Source: Candidatus Wolfebacteria bacterium
GTDB lineage: Bacteria > Patescibacteriota > Minisyncoccia > UBA6257 > JAGOQP01
Assembly: GCA_027350645.1 (NCBI GenBank)
Contig: DAIEKJ010000001.1
Coordinates: 1-42,496, forward strand
DNA length: 42,496 bases
Direction of reading: 5' to 3'
Each line of letters opens with the position of its first letter. The first letter of the stretch is position 1. The position numbers were made by a program, and so were the translations under genes. This document shows, one piece after another, positions 2,306-30,342 of this stretch. Below the pieces are notes generated by a model. The model worked only from the letters and a program-made list of their open reading frames with translations. It was not told the origin of the DNA and ran no database searches.

Positions 2306-3493
2306 CAAAACAATTCTAAAAAACTTTTTCTTCCCCGCGCGAATCGTGCCATCGCGCGCCGGATCGTCTTTGGCGATTATCTCGTCCGTGTCAAAATCGT
2401 GCACACCCCCCTGAGCAAATAAACGCGCCAGTTCCGATTTGCTCTGTGCCACATCTGCGCGCAACAAAAGAGAAAAATAGGTCTCCCCTTTCTTTGCGGC
2501 AATCTTGGCAATATCCTGCGGCGCCTCCTTCTTTTGAAACGCCTGCACAAAATTATTTTTCGCCTTCTCCGCCTCGTTGTCGCCCCAATACAACCGCGTA
2601 ATTTCGTACGCCAATATCATTTTAATGTCGCGTGGATTGACATGCTCGTACGCCATCTGTTTTTTATAGGCGTCAACCGCCTCCAGCGGCACGCGCGTGC
2701 AGTGCGTAAAATACGAGACGATATTTTCATCTCCCATACTCATAACTTTCCCAAACATCTGCACCGGCTCATCCAGCAGATTGACCGTGTTCCCCCACGA
2801 TGAGCTCATCTTGCGCCCGTCAATACCCATAATCAAATTCGTCATCAGCACATCCTGGGGCGATATAGTATAATGCCGCTGCATCTCCCTTCCGGAGAGC
2901 AGATTGAAACGCTGATCGGTCCCCCCTAATTCCACATCGGCCTTAACGGCGATGCTGTCGTATCCCTGCATCAGTGGATAGAGCACCTCGCGCAACGACA
3001 CGCGCTTTTGCGCATCCAGACGCTTCTTGATATTTTCGCGCGCGATAAATTCGGCAATGGAAAAAATATTGGCATGCTCGGCCACATCATGATACGTCAA
3101 CTTTTTGAGCCACTCGGAATTATAATGAATCTCGGCTTTGTTGAGATCGATGATTTTCCCCGCTTGTTTGATGTAGGTGGCAAGGTTTTTTTTAATGGTT
3201 TTGGCATCCAGCATGGGCCGCTCGCTTTCTTTGTCGGAGGTGTCGCCGATGACGCCGGTAAAATCGCCCACAATAAAAACGACTCTGTGTCCCAGTTCCT
3301 GAAAATCGCGCATCTTTAACAGCGGCACGGAACGTCCCAGGTGCAGGTTCGGGCTGGTGGGATCGATCCCCAGTTTCACCCGCAATTTTTTCCCGGAAAG
3401 CAGTTTTACGCGCAAACTTTTGGCGTCAATTGCCTCCGCCACTCCCCGCAACAACAGCTCATCTATTTTTTTAGCATCAACTTTTTTAGGCAT
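2300..3493 (-). CDS. tyrS: Tyrosyl-tRNA synthetase
   Basis: Class I signatures: HIGH-like PTSPNLHLGRS and KMSKS-like KMSSS. TyrRS-type core (GGTDQRFNLLSGRE). C-terminal S4-like RNA-binding tail. Confidence 0.9.
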   Translation of the reverse strand: MPKKVDAKKIDELLLRGVAEAIDAKSLRVKLLSGKKLRVKLGIDPTSPNLHLGRSVPLLKMRDFQELGHRVVFIVGDFTGVIGDTSDKESERPMLDAKTIKKNLATYIKQAGKIIDLNKAEIHYNSEWLKKLTYHDVAEHANIFSIAEFIARENIKKRLDAQKRVSLREVLYPLMQGYDSIAVKADVELGGTDQRFNLLSGREMQRHYTISPQDVLMTNLIMGIDGRKMSSSWGNTVNLLDEPVQMFGKVMSMGDENIVSYFTHCTRVPLEAVDAYKKQMAYEHVNPRDIKMILAYEITRLYWGDNEAEKAKNNFVQAFQKKEAPQDIAKIAAKKGETYFSLLLRADVAQSKSELARLFAQGGVHDFDTDEIIAKDDPARDGTIRAGKKKFFRIVLK

Positions 3494-3693: not shown

Positions 3694-4698
3694 TCATATC
3701 GCTCCATCGCGCGACAATCGTTGCGTCAACATATACGCATCAGCAAAATGCGCATATCCGCGCCACGACGCATACCCGCCATCCGCATGCATCGATACCG
3801 CCGCGGCGCTTTCTTCAAAAGCGCGCACTCGCTTTTGCCTCTTTAAAAATCTCCTCACCGTTGTCGTGCGCAACAACCGCCTCCCATCACGCACGACATA
3901 TCCCAAAAAATCAATGCCATGCGCACACGGGAAAATTTCTGCTTTTTTTGGATGCAACTGCAATCGCAATCGCTCACTGAGAAAAATCCCTATGCGTTCC
4001 TTATCTTCCCGCAAATGTTTTTTGTCATTTCCCAAAATCAAAAAATCGTCCATGTACCGGATATAATATCGTTCGTGCAATACGCGCTTTACGAAATAAT
4101 CAAGTTCATTGAGATATATGTTTGCAAATAATTGGCTCGTCAGATTTCCGATGGGAATGCCCGGCGCATTGCTGGCAATAATCACATCGCACAGCCACAA
4201 AACATTTTCATCGCGGATTTTCTTCCGTATCAATGAACGCAAAACATCATGGTCAATGCTGTCAAAATATTTTGAAATATCACATTTGAGACAATACGAT
4301 GCTCCATCCGCCGCCGTATGTCGCAGTGTATGAATATATTTCTCGAGGCGCCGCACGGCCGCGTGCGTCCCCTTGCCCTTCCGGCACGCATACGAGTCAA
4401 AAATAAAACTTCGCTCAAAAATCGGCTCAATCACATTGCACAGCGCGTGATGCACCACCCGATCGCTGAACGGCGCCGCTTTGATGGTTCGCCTTTTTGC
4501 CTCAACGACGGTAAATTCACGATAACCGCCATGCCGATATGTTTTTTGCCTCAGCTCCCGCTCAAGCGCGAGCAAGTTTTCTTCCAAGCAAAAGCCGAAT
4601 CTCAGAACAGAGGGACGATACCGCTTGCATTTCCGCGCCGCCACATACGCTTGATGCAGATTGGCAAAATCAACGACGCGATCATAGAGATACATCAT
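3694..4698 (-). CDS. DGR-type reverse transcriptase
   Basis: RT motifs: SYACRKGKGTHAA, DISKYFDSIDH, the DGR-typical IGNLTSQ (motif 4), YIRYMDDFLILG (YMDD catalytic box) and GIDFLGY. The ORF is open to a GTG at 4800, but the ATGATG at 4698/4695 (MMYLYDRVVDFANLHQAY...) matches the usual RT N-terminus. Confidence 0.88.
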   Translation of the reverse strand: MMYLYDRVVDFANLHQAYVAARKCKRYRPSVLRFGFCLEENLLALERELRQKTYRHGGYREFTVVEAKRRTIKAAPFSDRVVHHALCNVIEPIFERSFIFDSYACRKGKGTHAAVRRLEKYIHTLRHTAADGASYCLKCDISKYFDSIDHDVLRSLIRKKIRDENVLWLCDVIIASNAPGIPIGNLTSQLFANIYLNELDYFVKRVLHERYYIRYMDDFLILGNDKKHLREDKERIGIFLSERLRLQLHPKKAEIFPCAHGIDFLGYVVRDGRRLLRTTTVRRFLKRQKRVRAFEESAAAVSMHADGGYASWRGYAHFADAYMLTQRLSRDGAI

Positions 4699-4919
4699 AA
4701 CAACAAAAACCCTATGGCCCCGCGCCGGAGCTCTTAAAAAGAACAACGGCGCGAGGGAACGGGTTGTATTCCCTCTTTTATTTCGCTTACCGATACGCAC
4801 GTAACGGATATCGACGCAAAACTACTCAAGGAGGAGCGTGATCAGTAGGCTTCTTGGCGCAGGATAACGTTTATGAACGCTTTTCTCGGGCCAAGTGAGA
4901 TCATCACCATAGCAAAGTA

Positions 4920-5036
4920 TACCGGGCACAGCGGAACCCCACATTGTTGTTCGTATTACCCGTGTTCCAATTCAAGTTCAGCGCAAATGGTCCATCGTTC
5001 GAACCATTGTTCCAATTGTCGCCGCGAAGAAAGACG
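4920..5036 (-). repeat. DGR template repeat (TR)
   Basis: Collinear with 5515-5631 at a constant offset of 595. The coding-sense TR translates as VFLRGDNWNNGSNDGPFALNLNWNTGNTNNNVGFRCAR, with 11 AAY codons. It lacks the stop codon that ends the VR copy. It sits between avd and the RT. Confidence 0.9.
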
Positions 5037-5122
5037 CTGTGCGCGATCGCACCCCCGCCACGCCACCAAAAGCGTGGCAATCAAAAACGCGACACAAATG
5101 TTCTCGTCCTTGGTTGCCACAC

Positions 5123-5458
5123 CTATGAAAATCGCTTCGTCCATCCCGCATACAGTTTTCCAATTTCATTCAGTTTTTCCGCCGCAACGGCATAGTGCTT
5201 GATCCCCAAAAATTTCAGATCTTTTGCCAGCCGGATCAACATCCGCAGAAGATCTATCCGCACGGCCATTTTTTGCAAAACCAAACGCTTATCCGCGGCG
5301 GCATTGGCAATACTGATTTCTTTTATCAGTTCCACCAATTCATTTTCTATCTGCTGTCCCAAAACAAACCGCTGTTTTTGGGGAAATGAATTAATGATCG
5401 GGAAAAACCAGAGTGTGAAGTCGTACGTTTTTTGATACAGAATAAAATCGTCAAGCAT
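5123..5458 (-). CDS. avd: DGR accessory variability determinant (Avd-like four-helix-bundle protein)
   Basis: 111-aa basic helical protein. The YQKTYDFTLWFFPIINSFPQKQRFVLGQQI... pattern is typical of the Avd / 23S-rRNA-IVS four-helix-bundle family. Position between target and TR matches classical DGRs. Confidence 0.8.
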   Translation of the reverse strand: MLDDFILYQKTYDFTLWFFPIINSFPQKQRFVLGQQIENELVELIKEISIANAAADKRLVLQKMAVRIDLLRMLIRLAKDLKFLGIKHYAVAAEKLNEIGKLYAGWTKRFS

Positions 5459-5513
5459 ATTTTATTGCTATAAAAATCAAACAGAAGATACAAGATTACA
5501 GATTGCTACGAGC

Positions 5514-7064
5514 CTACCGGGCACAGCGGAACCCCACAAGGCTGCTCGTATCACCCGTGCCCCAACCCAAGCTCAGCGCAAAGGGCCCATCGAGCGAACC
5601 ATAGCTCCAATTGCCGCCGCGAAGAAAGACGGTTGTGTTCTGATTTGCTCCGGTACCATACGTATACACCTGACCCATGCCTTGAGAGGTGTTCCAGGAA
5701 GAATTGGGAGGAGCGAAGCTGACCTGAGGCACATCGGACGACCAGGAAGAAATATAGGGTGCGGTGGTATTGCCGTATTGGCACCATTCCCATCCGGCAT
5801 TCGCATTGGAACAGGAAGGAAGGGCCATAGCGGTGGTTAGGTCGCCGACGTTATTGATGCTCCTGGCAACGTGTTCCCAGACATTTCCCGAAAGATCCCA
5901 GATGACTTGTCCGTTGGAGAGAACAAGAGTGCGCCGTTCGTCGTTGGGATTGGTGACGGTTTTGTTTGTTTCTCCCGCATAGCCGTTGGCATCGTTGGCA
6001 TCGGCGGGATACTCGCTGGCATTGTTGGCGTTGCCTAGGTACATGCCCCCTGATCCGACCGATCCCCCCGTCCAGTTGGATGGTTGGTTGGCGGCATTGG
6101 TGGCGATGGTCATATATTCGTCGTTAGTGATCAGGTGCGCACCGATAGATTGGCAGTAGGAAACGGCGGTGGTATGGGAAATATCCACAATCTGGATACC
6201 ACCAGGAAGGGAGGAGATTTGGCGGTTGTTTGTGGGAGTACAGTTGGTTGCACCATTATTGTATCCATTGCCATCGGTTGGGGTATTGATAACCGCGCCG
6301 GTGGCATCGGAACAAGTTGCCGCATATTTCATCACCCAGAAGTCAGAGGTGCCAAAGGTGGGATTACCCGGAACCCTGATCCAGCCGGAAGGAAAGACCC
6401 CTTGTCCCAGAGCAAGGTTGGAACCCATTTCAAGAGCTCCTGATATAGTTCCGCCATCAGAGGAAGCCAGAGAGGCATATTTAGTTGATTCCATGGTAGC
6501 GGTCAGTTTGAAAGAACCTCCGGTGATGTAGGTATAGTACAGATTAGAGGAAGAGGCATTGACGGGGTCTATGGGAAGAGAGGAGAGAGAAACAACCCCA
6601 TTGGATTGGAAGTTAACGGGGATCCAGCCAGTTCCATTGGTATTTTGGAGAGTGGTGGTAGAAACACAGTTATAGTTCCAGCCAGACGGAAGAGAAGGAA
6701 GACCCCAGGAACCACAGGTGGAAGAAGAGTCAGGGAGGGAGGTATAGACAGTAGAAGAAGCGCCAAAAGAGACGGTTTGATCTAAGGCGTAGACGGTATT
6801 GAGGGCTTGGTTGAGAGCAGAAAGATCTTGTTGTCGTTTACTGTCTCGGGCTTGGGCTAAGAGTTGAGCGGGGTTGAGGGTAAGAACGACCGCAGCAACT
6901 AATACGGCCAGAATGCCAATAACGATGAGGAGTTCAATGAGCGTAAAACTCTCTTCGAGAGCCACACTCCTGGGGAAGGCGGAGGAGTTGTCCGGTGCGA
7001 ATAATGCGAACTTTGCGCGAAAGATGCGAATAAAAGGAAATGCCTTTTTGTTTTTTCGAATCAT
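5514..7064 (-). CDS. DGR target protein: type IV pilin-like N-terminus fused to an FGE-sulfatase / C-type-lectin-fold variable domain
   Basis: Prepilin-type FTLIELLIVIGILAVLVAAVVL segment, followed by a pilin-like globular part (YYTYITGGSFKLTATMES). C-terminal GNVWEHV ... RGGNW ... GFRCAR signature of the FGE/CLec fold, which contains the VR. The start codon is uncertain (ATG at 7064 or GTG at 6965). Confidence 0.85.
   Translation of the reverse strand: MIRKNKKAFPFIRIFRAKFALFAPDNSSAFPRSVALEESFTLIELLIVIGILAVLVAAVVLTLNPAQLLAQARDSKRQQDLSALNQALNTVYALDQTVSFGASSTVYTSLPDSSSTCGSWGLPSLPSGWNYNCVSTTTLQNTNGTGWIPVNFQSNGVVSLSSLPIDPVNASSSNLYYTYITGGSFKLTATMESTKYASLASSDGGTISGALEMGSNLALGQGVFPSGWIRVPGNPTFGTSDFWVMKYAATCSDATGAVINTPTDGNGYNNGATNCTPTNNRQISSLPGGIQIVDISHTTAVSYCQSIGAHLITNDEYMTIATNAANQPSNWTGGSVGSGGMYLGNANNASEYPADANDANGYAGETNKTVTNPNDERRTLVLSNGQVIWDLSGNVWEHVARSINNVGDLTTAMALPSCSNANAGWEWCQYGNTTAPYISSWSSDVPQVSFAPPNSSWNTSQGMGQVYTYGTGANQNTTVFLRGGNWSYGSLDGPFALSLGWGTGDTSSLVGFRCAR
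5515..5631 (-). repeat. DGR variable repeat (VR) at the 3' end of the target gene
   Basis: 117 nt matching the TR, with 17 substitutions by hand alignment, all at TR adenines. Encodes VFLRGGNWSYGSLDGPFALSLGWGTGDTSSLVGFRCAR followed by the TAG stop. The last 27 nt (GC-rich GTGGGGTTCCGCTGTGCCCGG) are invariant, as expected for an IMH-like end. Confidence 0.9.
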
Positions 7065-7241: not shown

Positions 7242-7778
7242 TTACCATATCCCCCATGCCTCCTCTATCTCATCGGCAATTTCCTGCGGGAGCGGAGCGC
7301 CGGGTTTGGTGACTCCCGGATAGCGCCAGGCCGAAATAATTTTCACTCTTCGCTCTCCGGTCAGTGCGCGCCGCATTGACGCAATCCACGTCCGCGCTTT
7401 GTCATCTTTTTTTCCATCTTCTTTTTCTCCGTTGCGAGCCGTTTGTTGTTTCCCTCCCGCCATCTCTTCTGTGTTGTCGCTCGTCGGTTGTCGGTTGCCT
7501 GCCCCGTTATCGCGAAGCGATTTTGCGGGGTCGGTTATCTTATACATCACCCATATTTCCTGACCCCAGGATCGTTTTCCTTCCTTGGTTTTATACGACG
7601 CGGGTTGAAGCGCGGCGACCGTTCCGGGAGCGATTCCCTCCTCGATACGCAGAGGGCTATGCAAAACCCGCCGCACCCGCGCCGGAGACAATCCATAAAA
7701 ACGCATCTTTGCCTGCGCGTGCGCGGTCCACGCATAGGCGCTCCCCGCGGGCACTGCCGATCTAAAATTTCCTGGCAT
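7242..7778 (-). CDS. Hypothetical protein, DUF4258-like ends with a low-complexity charged insert
   Basis: The ORF is open to 8036, but that extension overlaps the divergent glycosyltransferase. The ATG at 7778 leaves a 51-nt AT-rich divergent promoter region. AHAQAKMRFYGLSPARVRRVLHSP ... EIWVMYKI ... VKIISAWRY resembles the DUF4258 pattern. The middle is Gly/Lys/Glu/Asp-rich. Confidence 0.4.
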   Translation of the reverse strand: MPGNFRSAVPAGSAYAWTAHAQAKMRFYGLSPARVRRVLHSPLRIEEGIAPGTVAALQPASYKTKEGKRSWGQEIWVMYKITDPAKSLRDNGAGNRQPTSDNTEEMAGGKQQTARNGEKEDGKKDDKARTWIASMRRALTGERRVKIISAWRYPGVTKPGAPLPQEIADEIEEAWGIW

Positions 7779-7829: not shown

Positions 7830-9764
7830 ATGAATTATTTTTCGCGCATTACCGACCAAACCCACGAGCTTGCCCGGCGCGTCTCCATCCTGCTGTTGGG
7901 CATTATTATTCTTGCAAGCGCGGCCCTTATGGTCAGAAGCGCGTGGAGCGATTCGGCTATTATGGACGAACTGGCGCATATCCCCGCCGGTTATGGCTAC
8001 GTCAGCCAGCTGGATTACCGCCTCAATCCAGAGCATCCCCCGCTCATCAAGGCGCTTTCAGCCCTCCCGCTGTTGTTTGCCAATGTATCCTTCCCCACCG
8101 ACACATCCGCTTGGCAAACCGCGGTGAATGGCCAGTGGGACATGGGCGGCGCCTTTCTGTACGGCGTTAATGATCACCGCGCGCAAACGATCATCTTTAT
8201 CGCGCGCCTCTTCCCCATCCTCATCACGCTGTGCCTTATCGTTTTTGTGTATTGGTGGAGCAGAAAACTGGTGGGACCCCTTTGGGCGCTTCTGCCGACA
8301 TTTTTTATCGCGCTCTCTCCCAACATCCTGGCGCACGGCCATTATGTGACCACCGACGTCGGCGCCGCACTCGGTTTTTTGGTAAGCTTGTACGTTCTTG
8401 ATGCGTTCTGGGCATCGCCGTCAAAAAAAACTCTCCTGGTCGCCGGTATTTTTTTCGGCCTGGCGCAACTAACGAAATTTTCACTCGTCCTCATGGTTCC
8501 CATCGCCGTTCTTCTGGCGATCATCCACTGGTTTGCCGCCACGCGCGCAAACCGCTTAAAACTTTCAGACACGTTGTCATGGAAACTGGCGTGGAAATAT
8601 CTATACTCGCTGGCGCTTATTTTTGCCATCGGCTACGCCGTGGTCTGGGGAGCGTACCTGCTCTTTACCGCGCACTATCCCATCCAGCGGCAAGCAAGCG
8701 ACACCACGTTCCTCCTTGGGTCGTTTTCGGGAAGCTCGGACCCGTCTCTGCTGTCTACGTGCGTCATGCATCCGTCGATGCGTTGTCTGGCTAATGTTGA
8801 TATTATCATGGCGCGCATTCCGGTTGTCCGCGCCCTTGGACAATACCTGCTGGGCGTGCTGATGGTTATCCAGCGTTCCGACGGAGGCAACACCGCCTAC
8901 TTCCTGGGTAATGTCAGTGGCGGTGGCTGGTGGTATTATTTCCCGGTCGTCTTTGTTCTAAAAGAAACAATCCCAGGACTCCTCTATCTCCTTATCGGCG
9001 GATGGGCGGCAGTGCGGCGCGCGATAAAAAAATCCGTCACGCCGCGCATGGAACGCCTCTGGGGGTATGTGGCCGTCGCGTTTCCGGAAGTGTCAATGCT
9101 GACCGTTATTGTGGTCTATTGGGCCTACAGCATGCACAGCCCGCTCAATATCGGATTCCGACACATCCTGCCAACCATCCCCCTGATGTATATTCTGGCA
9201 ACTATCTCGGTAAAAAAATGGTTCTTCTCTAAAGAACCCGCGCACCAGCCCGAACCGCCATTGCGCGCGGTCGGACGCTTTGTGAAAACCGCCATCCGCG
9301 TATCTCTTAAAGGCGCCACCATCACGCTCCTTGTCGTCTGGGGATGTTTTGAAACGGCGCTGGCATCTCCGTATTTTCTTTCGTACTTCAACGAGCTGGG
9401 CGGCGGCGTCTGGGGAGGATACCACATTGTCACCGACTCCAACTACGACTGGGGACAAGACCTCTATCGCCTCAACACCTACGTCCAGCAGAACCACATC
9501 TCCAAAATCGCCGTTGATTATTTCGGCGGCGGCAATCCGCAATACACGCTGGAAAACGACGTAGCCGTACCCTGGAATTCGGCGATGGGGAACCCCGCTG
9601 ACCACGGCATCAACTGGCTGGCCATATCGATCAACACCATCGAGTCGGCAAAGTCGCATGCGCTTTTTACCCGCACCAGCGCCGATGAATACCCATGGCT
9701 TTCCGACTGGGATCACCCGTACGCGCGCGCCGGAACGTCTATCTTTATTTACCGCCTCCGATAA
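7830..9764 (+). CDS. GT-C fold membrane glycosyltransferase (PMT/ArnT-like, GT39/GT83-type)
   Basis: Multi-pass membrane protein. The first loop carries AIMDELAHIPAGYGY...NPEHPPLIKAL, typical of dolichyl/undecaprenyl-phosphate-sugar dependent transferases. Start trimmed from 7443 to the ATG at 7830 (MNYFSRI...). Confidence 0.65.
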   Translation: MNYFSRITDQTHELARRVSILLLGIIILASAALMVRSAWSDSAIMDELAHIPAGYGYVSQLDYRLNPEHPPLIKALSALPLLFANVSFPTDTSAWQTAVNGQWDMGGAFLYGVNDHRAQTIIFIARLFPILITLCLIVFVYWWSRKLVGPLWALLPTFFIALSPNILAHGHYVTTDVGAALGFLVSLYVLDAFWASPSKKTLLVAGIFFGLAQLTKFSLVLMVPIAVLLAIIHWFAATRANRLKLSDTLSWKLAWKYLYSLALIFAIGYAVVWGAYLLFTAHYPIQRQASDTTFLLGSFSGSSDPSLLSTCVMHPSMRCLANVDIIMARIPVVRALGQYLLGVLMVIQRSDGGNTAYFLGNVSGGGWWYYFPVVFVLKETIPGLLYLLIGGWAAVRRAIKKSVTPRMERLWGYVAVAFPEVSMLTVIVVYWAYSMHSPLNIGFRHILPTIPLMYILATISVKKWFFSKEPAHQPEPPLRAVGRFVKTAIRVSLKGATITLLVVWGCFETALASPYFLSYFNELGGGVWGGYHIVTDSNYDWGQDLYRLNTYVQQNHISKIAVDYFGGGNPQYTLENDVAVPWNSAMGNPADHGINWLAISINTIESAKSHALFTRTSADEYPWLSDWDHPYARAGTSIFIYRLR

Positions 9765-30038: not shown

Positions 30039-30120
30039 GCCTAGGTGGCGGAATTGGTATACGCGCACGACTCAAAATCGTGTCTCGAAAGGGATGAGGG
30101 TTCGAGTCCCTCCCTAGGCA
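30039..30120 (+). tRNA. tRNA-Leu (anticodon CAA), type II with long variable arm
   Basis: Hand fold: acceptor GCCTAGG/CCTAGGC. D-stem GCG/CGC with a GG-containing loop. Anticodon stem CACGA/TCGTG with loop CTCAAAA. 13-nt variable arm. T-arm GAGGG-TTCGAGT-CCCTC. Discriminator A. No encoded CCA. Confidence 0.85.
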
Positions 30121-30179
30121 CATAAAAGAATGGCCCCGTCAGGGGTCATTTTTTGTGTGCTTAGATTGAGGTGCTCAAA
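30108..30179 (+). repeat. 72-bp direct repeat, copy 1 (tRNA-Leu 3' 13 nt plus terminator plus 24 nt)
   Basis: ccctccctaggcacataaaagaatggccccgtcaggggtcattttttgtgtgcTtagattgaggtgctcaaa. Matches 30271-30342 with one mismatch (30161 T versus 30324 C). Confidence 0.85.
30130..30155 (+). terminator. Intrinsic terminator after tRNA-Leu
   Basis: atggcccc-gtca-ggggtcat hairpin followed by a T-run (TTTTTGTGTG). Confidence 0.65.
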
Positions 30180-30270: not shown

Positions 30271-30342
30271 CCCTCCCTAGGCACATAAAAGAATGGCCCC
30301 GTCAGGGGTCATTTTTTGTGTGCCTAGATTGAGGTGCTCAAA
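30271..30342 (+). repeat. 72-bp direct repeat, copy 2 (overlaps the last 6 codons and the stop of the PAP2 gene)
   Basis: Same sequence as 30108-30179 with one mismatch. Separated from copy 1 by a 91-bp spacer containing the 9-bp hairpin taagaaacc-cgaa-ggtttctta (30219-30240). Confidence 0.85.

Follow-up and report, generated by a model that had tools for sequence, protein, structure and literature searches.

A probable complete, chromosomal DGR with a pilin-like lectin target in a Patescibacteria bacterium

The window, i.e., the whole 42,496-nt stretch of DNA that was analysed, very probably contains a complete, canonical chromosomal DGR of a Patescibacteria (CPR) bacterium, with the mechanism proposed below and a pilin-like lectin as its target. 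The cassette lies on the minus strand in the order of target gene, Avd, TR, a structured spacer RNA of 221 nt, and RT. It sits in the chromosome among the housekeeping genes of the window, and the same MAG contains another DGR, whose pilin target is a paralogue. DGRs, including those of CPR, have been catalogued by tens of thousands, and as a DGR the cassette is nothing new in principle. Its value lies in being clean and complete and in having a target that can be interpreted. In a scan for promoter and terminator consensus sequences, the counts equalled the shuffled expectation.

The non-coding template repeat (TR) was located at 4920-5036 and the variable repeat (VR) at 5515-5631, both on the minus strand. 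The TR is composed of 29 A, 33 G, 29 T, and 26 C and holds 11 AAY codons in the VR frame, and the VR covers the last 38 codons of the target gene and reaches two bases into its stop codon. The ungapped alignment of the reverse complements gave 117 columns with 17 mismatches and 0 gaps at a constant spacing of 595. All mismatches (17/17) had an adenine in the TR, i.e., 11 A>G, 3 A>T, and 3 A>C. The chance that 17/17 fall on 29 adenines among 117 positions was p = 4.3e-13 (Fisher/hypergeometric). This computed alignment and its mismatch table agreed with the one given in the earlier note, i.e., 117 nt without indels and differences on TR adenines only, and the same pair was recovered by a separate repeat search (D1, 117 nt, 85%, spacing 595). 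By codon, 10/11 AAY codons of the TR were recoded in the VR, GAC484 was changed to GGC, and two changes were silent, i.e., GGA493 to GGG and CCA494 to CCC. The codon table matched the earlier codon claims, including the two silent changes at third-position A, and the TR and VR peptides as first given were exact on translation. By adenine-tolerant scan of both strands, no second VR was found in the window.

At the 5' end, 17 nt are identical between TR and VR, and beyond them the sequences are unrelated. The 3' limit of the homology falls inside the stop codon, which is TAG in the VR and TAT in the TR, so the abrupt end on both sides that had been described before was seen again. The identical 3' tail, TGTGGGGTTCCGCTGTGCCCGGTA, is 24 nt long and has 67% G+C vs 52% in the window; its length had been given as 27 nt, which was too long, and the string first quoted for it was of 23 nt. 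Because TR and VR are identical over this G+C-rich tail, no IMH/IMH* difference is visible between them. No significant hairpin or cruciform was found after the VR in the window (z = -0.5), nor in the orthologous locus L045 and the related locus L046. Of the IMH-like boundary suggested earlier, the G+C-rich identical tail was retained, but a TR/VR difference inside the tail and a hairpin or cruciform after the VR were absent. An IMH/IMH* of the BPP-1 type, followed by a hairpin or cruciform, is not known from every DGR.

The RT gene was predicted at 3694-4698 of the minus strand, encoding 334 aa from ATG 4698 (Pfam RVT_1, 8.6e-22). A longer ORF from GTG 4800 was rejected because it would overlap the conserved RNA and has no support from homologues. 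The best solved relative of the RT was bRT of the Bordetella phage DGR (8ub7_A, E = 1.8e-60, aa 4-324), whereas group II intron RTs reached only 1e-19. The IGNLTSQ and YMDD of the RT aligned with IGSLTSQ and YMDD of bRT (bRT I181/G182/Q187 and D215/D216), and the aspartate aligned to bRT D138 is kept. Judged by homology and the [LIV]GxxxSQ and YxDD motifs, the protein is assigned to the RTs of the DGR clade, and no loss-of-function lesions were seen in it. Avd, of 111 aa, was predicted at 5123-5458 of the minus strand (Pfam bAvd, 7.9e-25, 87.9 bits, cut-off 40). It also passed NCBIfam NF033474 DivGenRetAVD with 94.8 bits (cut-off 80), and no match to it was obtained among PDB sequences.

The TR-to-RT spacer (4699-4919, minus strand) is shown by covariation to be a conserved structured RNA, i.e., the 3' part of the DGR RNA. 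In the alignment of 21 loci, 30 pairs were found with 86.6% paired, and compensatory changes were present in 27/30. None of the shuffles (0/500) reached the observed values, and slid controls gave 33-53%. A near-invariant motif, TTGGCCCGAG, was found at 4885-4894 within the spacer, and the spacer as a whole was 95% identical to that of L045. Single-sequence folding of TR plus spacer was uninformative (z = -0.85), and the structure was seen only by comparative analysis. No Rfam family was matched by the spacer; a mir-122 match (24 bits; gathering score, 70) was discarded as chance. A conserved TR:spacer priming duplex was not located by RNAduplex over the 21 loci, where the registers were inconsistent, and at these loci the TR tail, which reads GGGTT or GGCTT, showed no covariation with the candidate block in the spacer. 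The priming duplex, Avd-binding stem-loop, and stop duplex of the BPP-1 type could not be assigned in the spacer RNA. With its 27 covarying pairs, the RNA is a defined element to compare with the Bordetella RNP structure. DGR RNAs with conserved structures 3' of the TR, CPR included, have been published, and the covariation of the spacer is consistent with them (bioRxiv 10.1101/2023.10.23.563531).

The DGR target gene (5514-7064, minus strand, stop codon at 5514-5516) was predicted to encode a modular type IV pilin-like protein of 516 aa, in which the Pfam FGE-sulfatase domain was recognized (31.3 bits, cut-off 23.3). The VR is carried by the C-terminal domain, aa 225-516 (5517-6392, minus strand), which was analysed with AlphaFold2 and Foldseek. 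The full-length model had a pLDDT of 69 and gave nothing significant in Foldseek, and the model of the C-terminal domain was used instead (119-sequence alignment, pLDDT 95.8, pTM 0.94). The best PDB matches of the domain model were TaqVP of Thermus aquaticus (5vf4, E = 1.5e-8), which was also a profile match, formylglycine-generating enzymes, and Mtd of phage BPP-1 (E = 4e-4), all with a probability of 1.0. From this model, the VR-bearing domain is confidently assigned to the C-type-lectin/FGE fold of known DGR variable proteins. Across 118 homologues, the mean entropy was 3.2 bits at the 11 AAY-templated positions vs 0.99 at the other VR positions.

The proposed mechanism begins with TR and the 3' spacer, which would be transcribed from the minus strand. 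The structured spacer RNA would recruit the RT-Avd complex. The RT would make cDNA from the TR without error at all template bases but adenine, opposite which random nucleotides would be inserted. The cDNA would then take the place of the homologous VR, 117 nt long, in the 3' end of the target gene. These biochemical steps are proposed by homology to the Bordetella phage system. Re-drawing would affect 15 codons, i.e., the 11 AAY (Asn) codons and four more that contain adenine, and the theoretical repertoire was estimated at up to 15^11 x 4^4, i.e., ~2e15 protein variants. Stop codons are impossible within the 38 coding codons, and the 29th TR adenine lies in the target's own TAG stop. The variable positions would fall in the ligand-binding C-type-lectin module of the modular type IV pilin-like protein. 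With a hypervariable lectin module on a pilus, the cell could vary what the pilus binds.

The earlier note had read the repeats as the template/variable pair of a DGR with past mutagenic retrohoming, and both parts of that reading hold. Past retrohoming is well supported because the RT and Avd adjoining the TR, the VR at the end of the lectin/FGE-fold ORF, the structured spacer RNA, and the orthologue all fit. In the orthologous cassette of L045, the TR was identical at 116/117 positions, whereas the neighbouring tyrS was 81.5% and the body of the target 83.7% identical. The L045 VR differed from the L045 TR at 15 positions, all adenines, in an independent pattern unlike that of the window, and the only non-adenine change in the L045 TR (C>T) recurred in the L045 VR. 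These patterns lend indirect support to a TR-to-VR transfer. An ordinary diverged duplication of the gene 3' end, or an assembly artefact, with an adenine bias by chance, would explain that an imperfect direct repeat of 117 nt exists, and nothing more. It is refuted by the adenine-only pattern (p = 4e-13), the repetition of this layout at dozens of related loci, the adjacent DGR RT and Avd genes, and the same sequence in four assemblies, and its probability is close to nil. A different question is whether a once-active DGR is now quiescent or fixed, i.e., the cassette is intact and the VR is frozen in the population, with retrohoming very rare or repressed or one VR allele strongly selected. 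The short-read Logan contig L004 spans VR and TR unbroken, and no other VR variant of the target was found in its 90% cluster of a 15-billion-protein collection, as would be expected of a frozen VR. No VR variation was found either among four public assemblies of the strain (L001-L004; GCA_027423155.1, ERZ27236874, GCA_021837725.1, and SRR13178630), but these may come from the same or related samples and give the consensus only, in which minority VR variants would not show. RT, Avd, TR, and spacer RNA have all remained intact, and their conservation exceeds that of the neighbouring housekeeping genes, which argues for continuing selection on function. Quiescence is considered rather unlikely, and the DGR may be active at present.

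At the other end of the target, a putative prepilin-type (class III) signal/methylation motif, which takes in the beginning of the hydrophobic alpha-1 helix, was found at aa 40-59 (6888-6947, minus strand), i.e., FTLIELLIVIGILAVLVAAV after a Ser, with Glu at +5. Counted from the first ATG, the leader has 39 aa, which is long, and a pilin-like module of ~185 aa lies behind it. The family profile matched solved type IV pilins over ~65 residues, i.e., Geobacter PilA-N (5e-9), PilA, and GspG, and F40, T41, L42, and E44 were invariant in 34 homologues. Judged by these features, the target probably uses the prepilin pathway for export and ends up on a pilus or pilus tip, where it may have an adhesive role. 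It is also conceivable, though doubtful, that the DGR is genuine and its target is not a pilus subunit. The FTLIELL helix would then be only a membrane anchor or a pseudopilin-like export signal, and the lectin module would be borne by the cell surface or by a short type II-secretion-/competence-like pseudopilus instead of an adhesive type IV pilus. Such a role would suit a motif just below the curated cut-offs (Pfam N_methyl, 19.6 vs 21.2 bits; TIGR02532, 16.1 vs 16.3), Ser rather than Gly at -1, N-terminal matches to GspG/PilA that are weak, and NCBIfam matches of which the best, with very low scores, were the pseudopilins GspG and GspH. It would also suit the lack of pilus assembly and prepilin peptidase genes in the 42-kb window and the full-length model, which was poor across the N-terminal half. 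However, the match to the solved alpha-1 helix profile and the family-wide invariance of the F1/E5 equivalents speak for a pilin. It is well established that some pilins are large and "modular", with binding modules grafted on (Raynaud et al. 2021, PMC8179133), and Patescibacteria widely keep type IV pili (PMC11623550). Display on a pilus is preferred here, and the DGR would thus rewrite the tip with which a surface protein of pilus type binds sugars or other ligands, a hint at how these ultra-small bacteria vary what they stick to.

The DGR of Bordetella phage BPP-1 (bRT, Avd, TR, and Mtd) has the same gene set and order, i.e., a target with a C-terminal VR, Avd, TR, and RT. The RTs of the two systems are homologous from end to end and have IGxxxSQ and YMDD in common, and both systems show adenine-only differences, AAY codons, and a structured RNA 3' of the TR. 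Unlike that of BPP-1, the present cassette is chromosomal among housekeeping genes and not phage-borne, and its target is a pilin-like cellular protein and not a tail-fibre protein. It also differs in that no IMH/IMH* difference or VR-flanking cruciform is detectable and that its Avd has no sequence-level match to solved structures. Another FGE-type target, TvpA of Treponema denticola (2y3c), is described with a lipoprotein signal, whereas the present one has a prepilin-type leader and a pilin-like module.

Paul et al. 2017 reportedly dealt with DGRs of the Candidate Phyla Radiation. As in the CPR DGRs termed "DGR clade 2" (Roux et al. 2021, PMC8144416), the host here, judged by the names of homologues, is a Patescibacterium and the cassette is chromosomal. 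The targets of CPR DGRs typically have no recognisable transmembrane or other conserved domain (Roux et al., PMC8144416), and Wu et al. found motifs in only 10/126 of them, with pilins unmentioned. Unlike those targets, the present one has a recognisable prepilin N-terminus and an FGE-sulfatase domain. CPR DGR targets "remain entirely uncharacterized" according to a review (PMC8867640). A prepilin-type target with a confidently modelled lectin module, whose homologous positions are hypervariable in >100 relatives, offers a concrete, testable hypothesis, i.e., that CPR DGRs vary the binding specificity of a pilus adhesin. No modular pilin of Raynaud et al. is known to be hypermutated by a retroelement. 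Modular type IV pilins include PilB and PilC of Streptococcus sanguinis, and many CPR examples have been listed (Raynaud et al. 2021, PMC8179133). The main text of that paper contains no FGE/C-type-lectin module. In gut Bacteroides, a cellular DGR likewise diversifies the adhesive component of a pilus (bioRxiv 10.1101/2024.11.15.621889). That system differs in its type V pilus with chaperone-free strand exchange, vs the type IV prepilin here, and belongs to another phylum and target family.

Homologues of the target numbered at least 992 and were mostly named prepilin-type or SUMF1/FGE proteins of Patescibacteria. The peptide FTLIELL is generic for pilins, and a contig scan on it gave unrelated pilins (L005-L044). 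RT and Avd were adjacent in 4/7 family members examined, and in 3/7 none was within 5-6 kb. The related RTs, 80 in number with 41-67% identity, came from environmental metagenome contigs, and the VR-Avd-TR-RT layout was common to most of their loci. Among 29 complete targets of these RTs, 9 had the prepilin motif. TR/VR pairs were searched by adenine-tolerant diagonal scan, since blastn self-comparison missed heavily mutated pairs, including the known pair of L046. At 47 related RT loci, the pairs had 620 A>N mismatches vs 48 others. We suggest tentatively, and with a slight lean against it, that the cassette represents a very large, essentially undescribed family of DGR-hypermutated modular type IV pilins in Paceibacteria and other Patescibacteria. 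If this is true, a pilus-displayed hypervariable lectin would be a main device of host or particle recognition in these ultra-small epibionts. A reduced genome could then hold two such cassettes, with pilin modules and even RT segments homogenised by recombination. Near-identical strains of related targets differed mainly in the VR (P0127 vs P0002 and P0128 vs P0004).

The element in this window is a member of the diversity-generating retroelement (DGR) family. The cassette parts all follow the classical order on the minus strand, i.e., target gene (7064-5514), accessory variability determinant (Avd, 5458-5123), template repeat (TR, 5036-4920), a 221-nt spacer (4919-4699), and reverse transcriptase (RT, 4698-3694). 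The last 38 codons of the target gene form the variable repeat (VR). The Avd was recognized by NCBIfam DivGenRetAVD (94.8 bits, cut-off 80) and Pfam bAvd (7.9e-25). The RT matched Pfam RVT_1, and its closest solved relative was bRT of the Bordetella phage DGR (8ub7_A, E = 1.8e-60, residues 4-324), whereas group II intron RTs reached only 1e-19. Its IGNLTSQ and YMDD align with bRT residues touching the template and the incoming nucleotide. The neighbors are housekeeping genes, i.e., ychF, tyrS, a PMT-family glycosyltransferase gene, serS, a class II aaRS gene, greA, cdaA, map, parAB, ssb, rpoB/C, and ftsW; therefore, the DGR is chromosomal and not phage-borne.

The TR was assigned by VR alignment and codon table. 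The 117-nt gapless match (reverse complements of 4920-5036 and 5515-5631), which an earlier note had drawn by hand, was reproduced, and an independent repeat search of the window recovered the same pair. The adenine-only pattern that it described was also found. All 17 mismatches were A in the TR copy (11 A>G, 3 A>T, and 3 A>C), and none of the 88 other TR bases differed in the VR. The probability that all 17 would land on the 29 adenines by chance is 4.3e-13. Read in frame with the 516-aa ORF (7064..5514), 10 of the 11 template AAY codons were changed in the VR, GAC484 became GGC, and two third-position changes (GGA493 and CCA494) were silent, as claimed. An adenine-tolerant scan of the window found no further copy. 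The repertoire, which the earlier note had proposed to estimate, is up to about 2.2e15 proteins, based on 11 AAY, two GAY, and two ACG codons, among which an internal stop is impossible; the 29th TR adenine is within the target's own TAG stop.

The identical 3' tail measured 24 nt instead of the reported 27 nt, the sole inaccuracy in that note. Its G+C content is 67%, against 52% in the window. The reading of this tail as an IMH-like boundary held for the G+C-rich identity, but neither an IMH/IMH* difference between TR and VR nor a cruciform 3' of the VR was visible. Four of the seven DGR-defining features tested were found. For two others the signs were partial, namely a structured RNA 3' of the TR whose helices could be assigned to no individual BPP-1 element, and TR-to-VR transfer, which an orthologue supports indirectly. 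The seventh, the BPP-1-type IMH/cruciform, was absent; this feature is not universal among DGRs. ORFs predicted across the non-coding TR (4904-5080 and 4956-5144, minus strand; 6315-6503 in the public assembly ERZ27236874) are spurious; one of them, 62 aa long, has been called a gene in public assemblies. The VR-matching frame through the TR gives a 58-aa "protein", merely a template copy of the target C-terminus.

An orthologous cassette with the same synteny, i.e., target, Avd, TR, RT, and tyrS, was found in sample ERZ27233560. Nucleotide identity to the window was 81.5% in tyrS, 83.7% in the target body, 90.4% in RT, 95.2% in Avd, 95.0% in the spacer, and 99.1% (116/117) in the TR. The orthologous VR differed from its own TR at 15 positions, all on adenines, in a pattern unlike that of the window. 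The two TRs differ at a single non-adenine base (TTC>TTT), and the orthologous VR carries this change too. This indicates one or more retrohoming events after the divergence of the two lineages. In related target clusters, close strains showed bodies approximately 96-97% identical and massively different VRs. In 80 metagenomic loci with related RTs, the adenine-tolerant scan found TR/VR pairs in most loci including flanking DNA, and 47 pooled pairs gave 620 A>N mismatches against 48 others. Within the strain, the cassette DNA including the VR was 100% identical to the window in four public assemblies, which are consensus sequences only and from possibly related samples, and no other VR variant of the target was found in the protein collection. 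Among related loci, one TR matched two VRs in the same locus in L110 and probably in L126, a stretch of 680 nt or more with the TR/VR region inside was duplicated in L084, and the TR was downstream, not upstream, of the RT in about ten.

Judged by covariation, the TR-to-RT spacer (4699-4919, minus strand) is a conserved structured RNA. It is better conserved than the flanking coding genes. In the 21-locus alignment, eight helices with 30 pairs were found, 86.6% of cells were paired, and compensatory changes occurred in 27 of the 30 pairs. None of 500 shuffles attained these values, and a slid-partner control gave 33-53% paired. A near-invariant block, TTGGCCCGA[AG], is placed approximately 25 nt past the TR (window 4885-4894). 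The spacer agrees with the conserved structural elements reported 3' of the TR in DGR RNAs across phyla, including CPR (bioRxiv 10.1101/2023.10.23.563531). No Rfam family covers the spacer, and no match was obtained between its helices and the priming, Avd-binding, and stop elements of the Bordetella BPP-1 DGR RNA. By homology with the Bordetella system, the TR-spacer transcript would bind RT-Avd, cDNA would be synthesized with random nucleotides opposite adenines, and this cDNA would replace the VR.

At the N-terminus of the target is a prepilin-type motif, S|FTLIELLIVIGILAVL.., with Glu at +5. The motif scored just below curated cut-offs (19.6 vs 21.2 bits; 16.1 vs 16.3). A 34-homologue profile, in which the F, T, L, and E residues of the motif are invariant, matched solved type IV pilins and GspG over approximately 65 residues (best 5e-9). 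Pfam FGE-sulfatase was above cut-off at aa 277-402, an internal stretch of the 225-516 domain. The structure predicted for residues 225-516 (pLDDT 95.8, pTM 0.94, 119-sequence alignment) best matched the DGR variable protein TaqVP (E = 1.5e-8), followed by formylglycine-generating enzymes and Mtd of phage BPP-1 (E = 4e-4). With a pilin-like module and a C-type-lectin/FGE module, the target fits the "modular pilin" class of Raynaud et al. (PMC8179133). The prepilin signal suggests that it is displayed on a type IV filament. By analogy with Mtd, TvpA, and TaqVP, the residues that vary would be expected to make up the face of the lectin module that binds ligand.

The target family comprises at least 992 proteins (E <= 0.001), most of which have prepilin-type or SUMF1/FGE annotations and come from Patescibacteria. 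Judged by the names of these homologues, the organism belongs to Patescibacteria (Paceibacterota/Minisyncoccia). Among 118 homologues, mean entropy was 3.2 bits at the 11 AAY-templated positions, 0.99 bits at other VR positions, and 1.40 bits in the rest of the domain; the 15 non-silent adenine-codon positions averaged 2.81 bits (Mann-Whitney p = 1.6e-6 against other VR positions). RT and Avd adjoined the target in four of seven family members examined, and the prepilin motif was present in 9 of 29 complete targets of related RTs. Three pilin-lectin family proteins with a VR-like C-terminus, i.e., P0053 (locus L131), P0097 (L132), and P0116 (L133), lacked a TR, RT, and Avd within 5-6 kb. Either a DGR at some other genomic site diversifies them remotely, or they may be paralogues that are not diversified. 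Next to P0097 are genes for a Laminin_G_3 protein and for a further small N_methyl pilin.

DGRs are well known in CPR bacteria, whereas the nature of their targets is little described. CPR DGR targets are typically without recognizable domains (Roux et al., PMC8144416). Of the 126 CPR DGR targets studied by Wu et al., 10 had motifs, and pilins were not mentioned; in another survey, a GspG-type pilin domain appears as a rare DGR target domain. Full-text literature searches turned up no report of a connection between DGRs and type IV pilins. The window target gives a lead, of moderate interest, as to what DGRs vary in CPR bacteria.

A second DGR cassette was found in the same MAG (GCA_021837725.1, contig JAKBFI010000014.1), with a target of 490 aa (P0004), an Avd of 118 aa, an RT of 306 aa, and a TR (3236-3354) and VR (2629-2747) with 18 of 18 mismatches on adenines. 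Between the two cassettes, identity is only 49.5% in the RTs and 33% in the Avds, but it rises to 93% over the 5' 624 nt of the target genes (window 6325-6947) and to 94.7% over a 132-nt RT segment (window 4346-4477). Such near-identical segments amid diverged cassettes suggest recombination or gene conversion between them. The public assembly GCA_027423155.1 joins the upstream context of the second cassette (frr) to the body of the first inside the pilin helix, at window ~6947; this join reflects either assembly chimerism or genuine recombination.

A 644-aa GT-C/PMT_2-family membrane glycosyltransferase (7830-9764, plus strand) is encoded divergently from the pilin-like target, approximately 0.8 kb upstream of it, with an unannotated 170-aa ORF (7242-7754) in between. 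Certain type IV pilins receive their glycans from GT-C enzymes encoded next to them, e.g., TfpW of Pseudomonas, and by analogy the linkage here might be functional. Elsewhere in the window, the last 14 nt of tRNA-Leu(CAA) (30039-30121) and a 58-nt downstream terminator-like hairpin form a 72-nt unit (30108-30179), repeated 163 nt further on with 99% identity (30271-30342). The repeat looks like an att-site duplication left by an integrative element at the tRNA 3' end, or a local tandem duplication.
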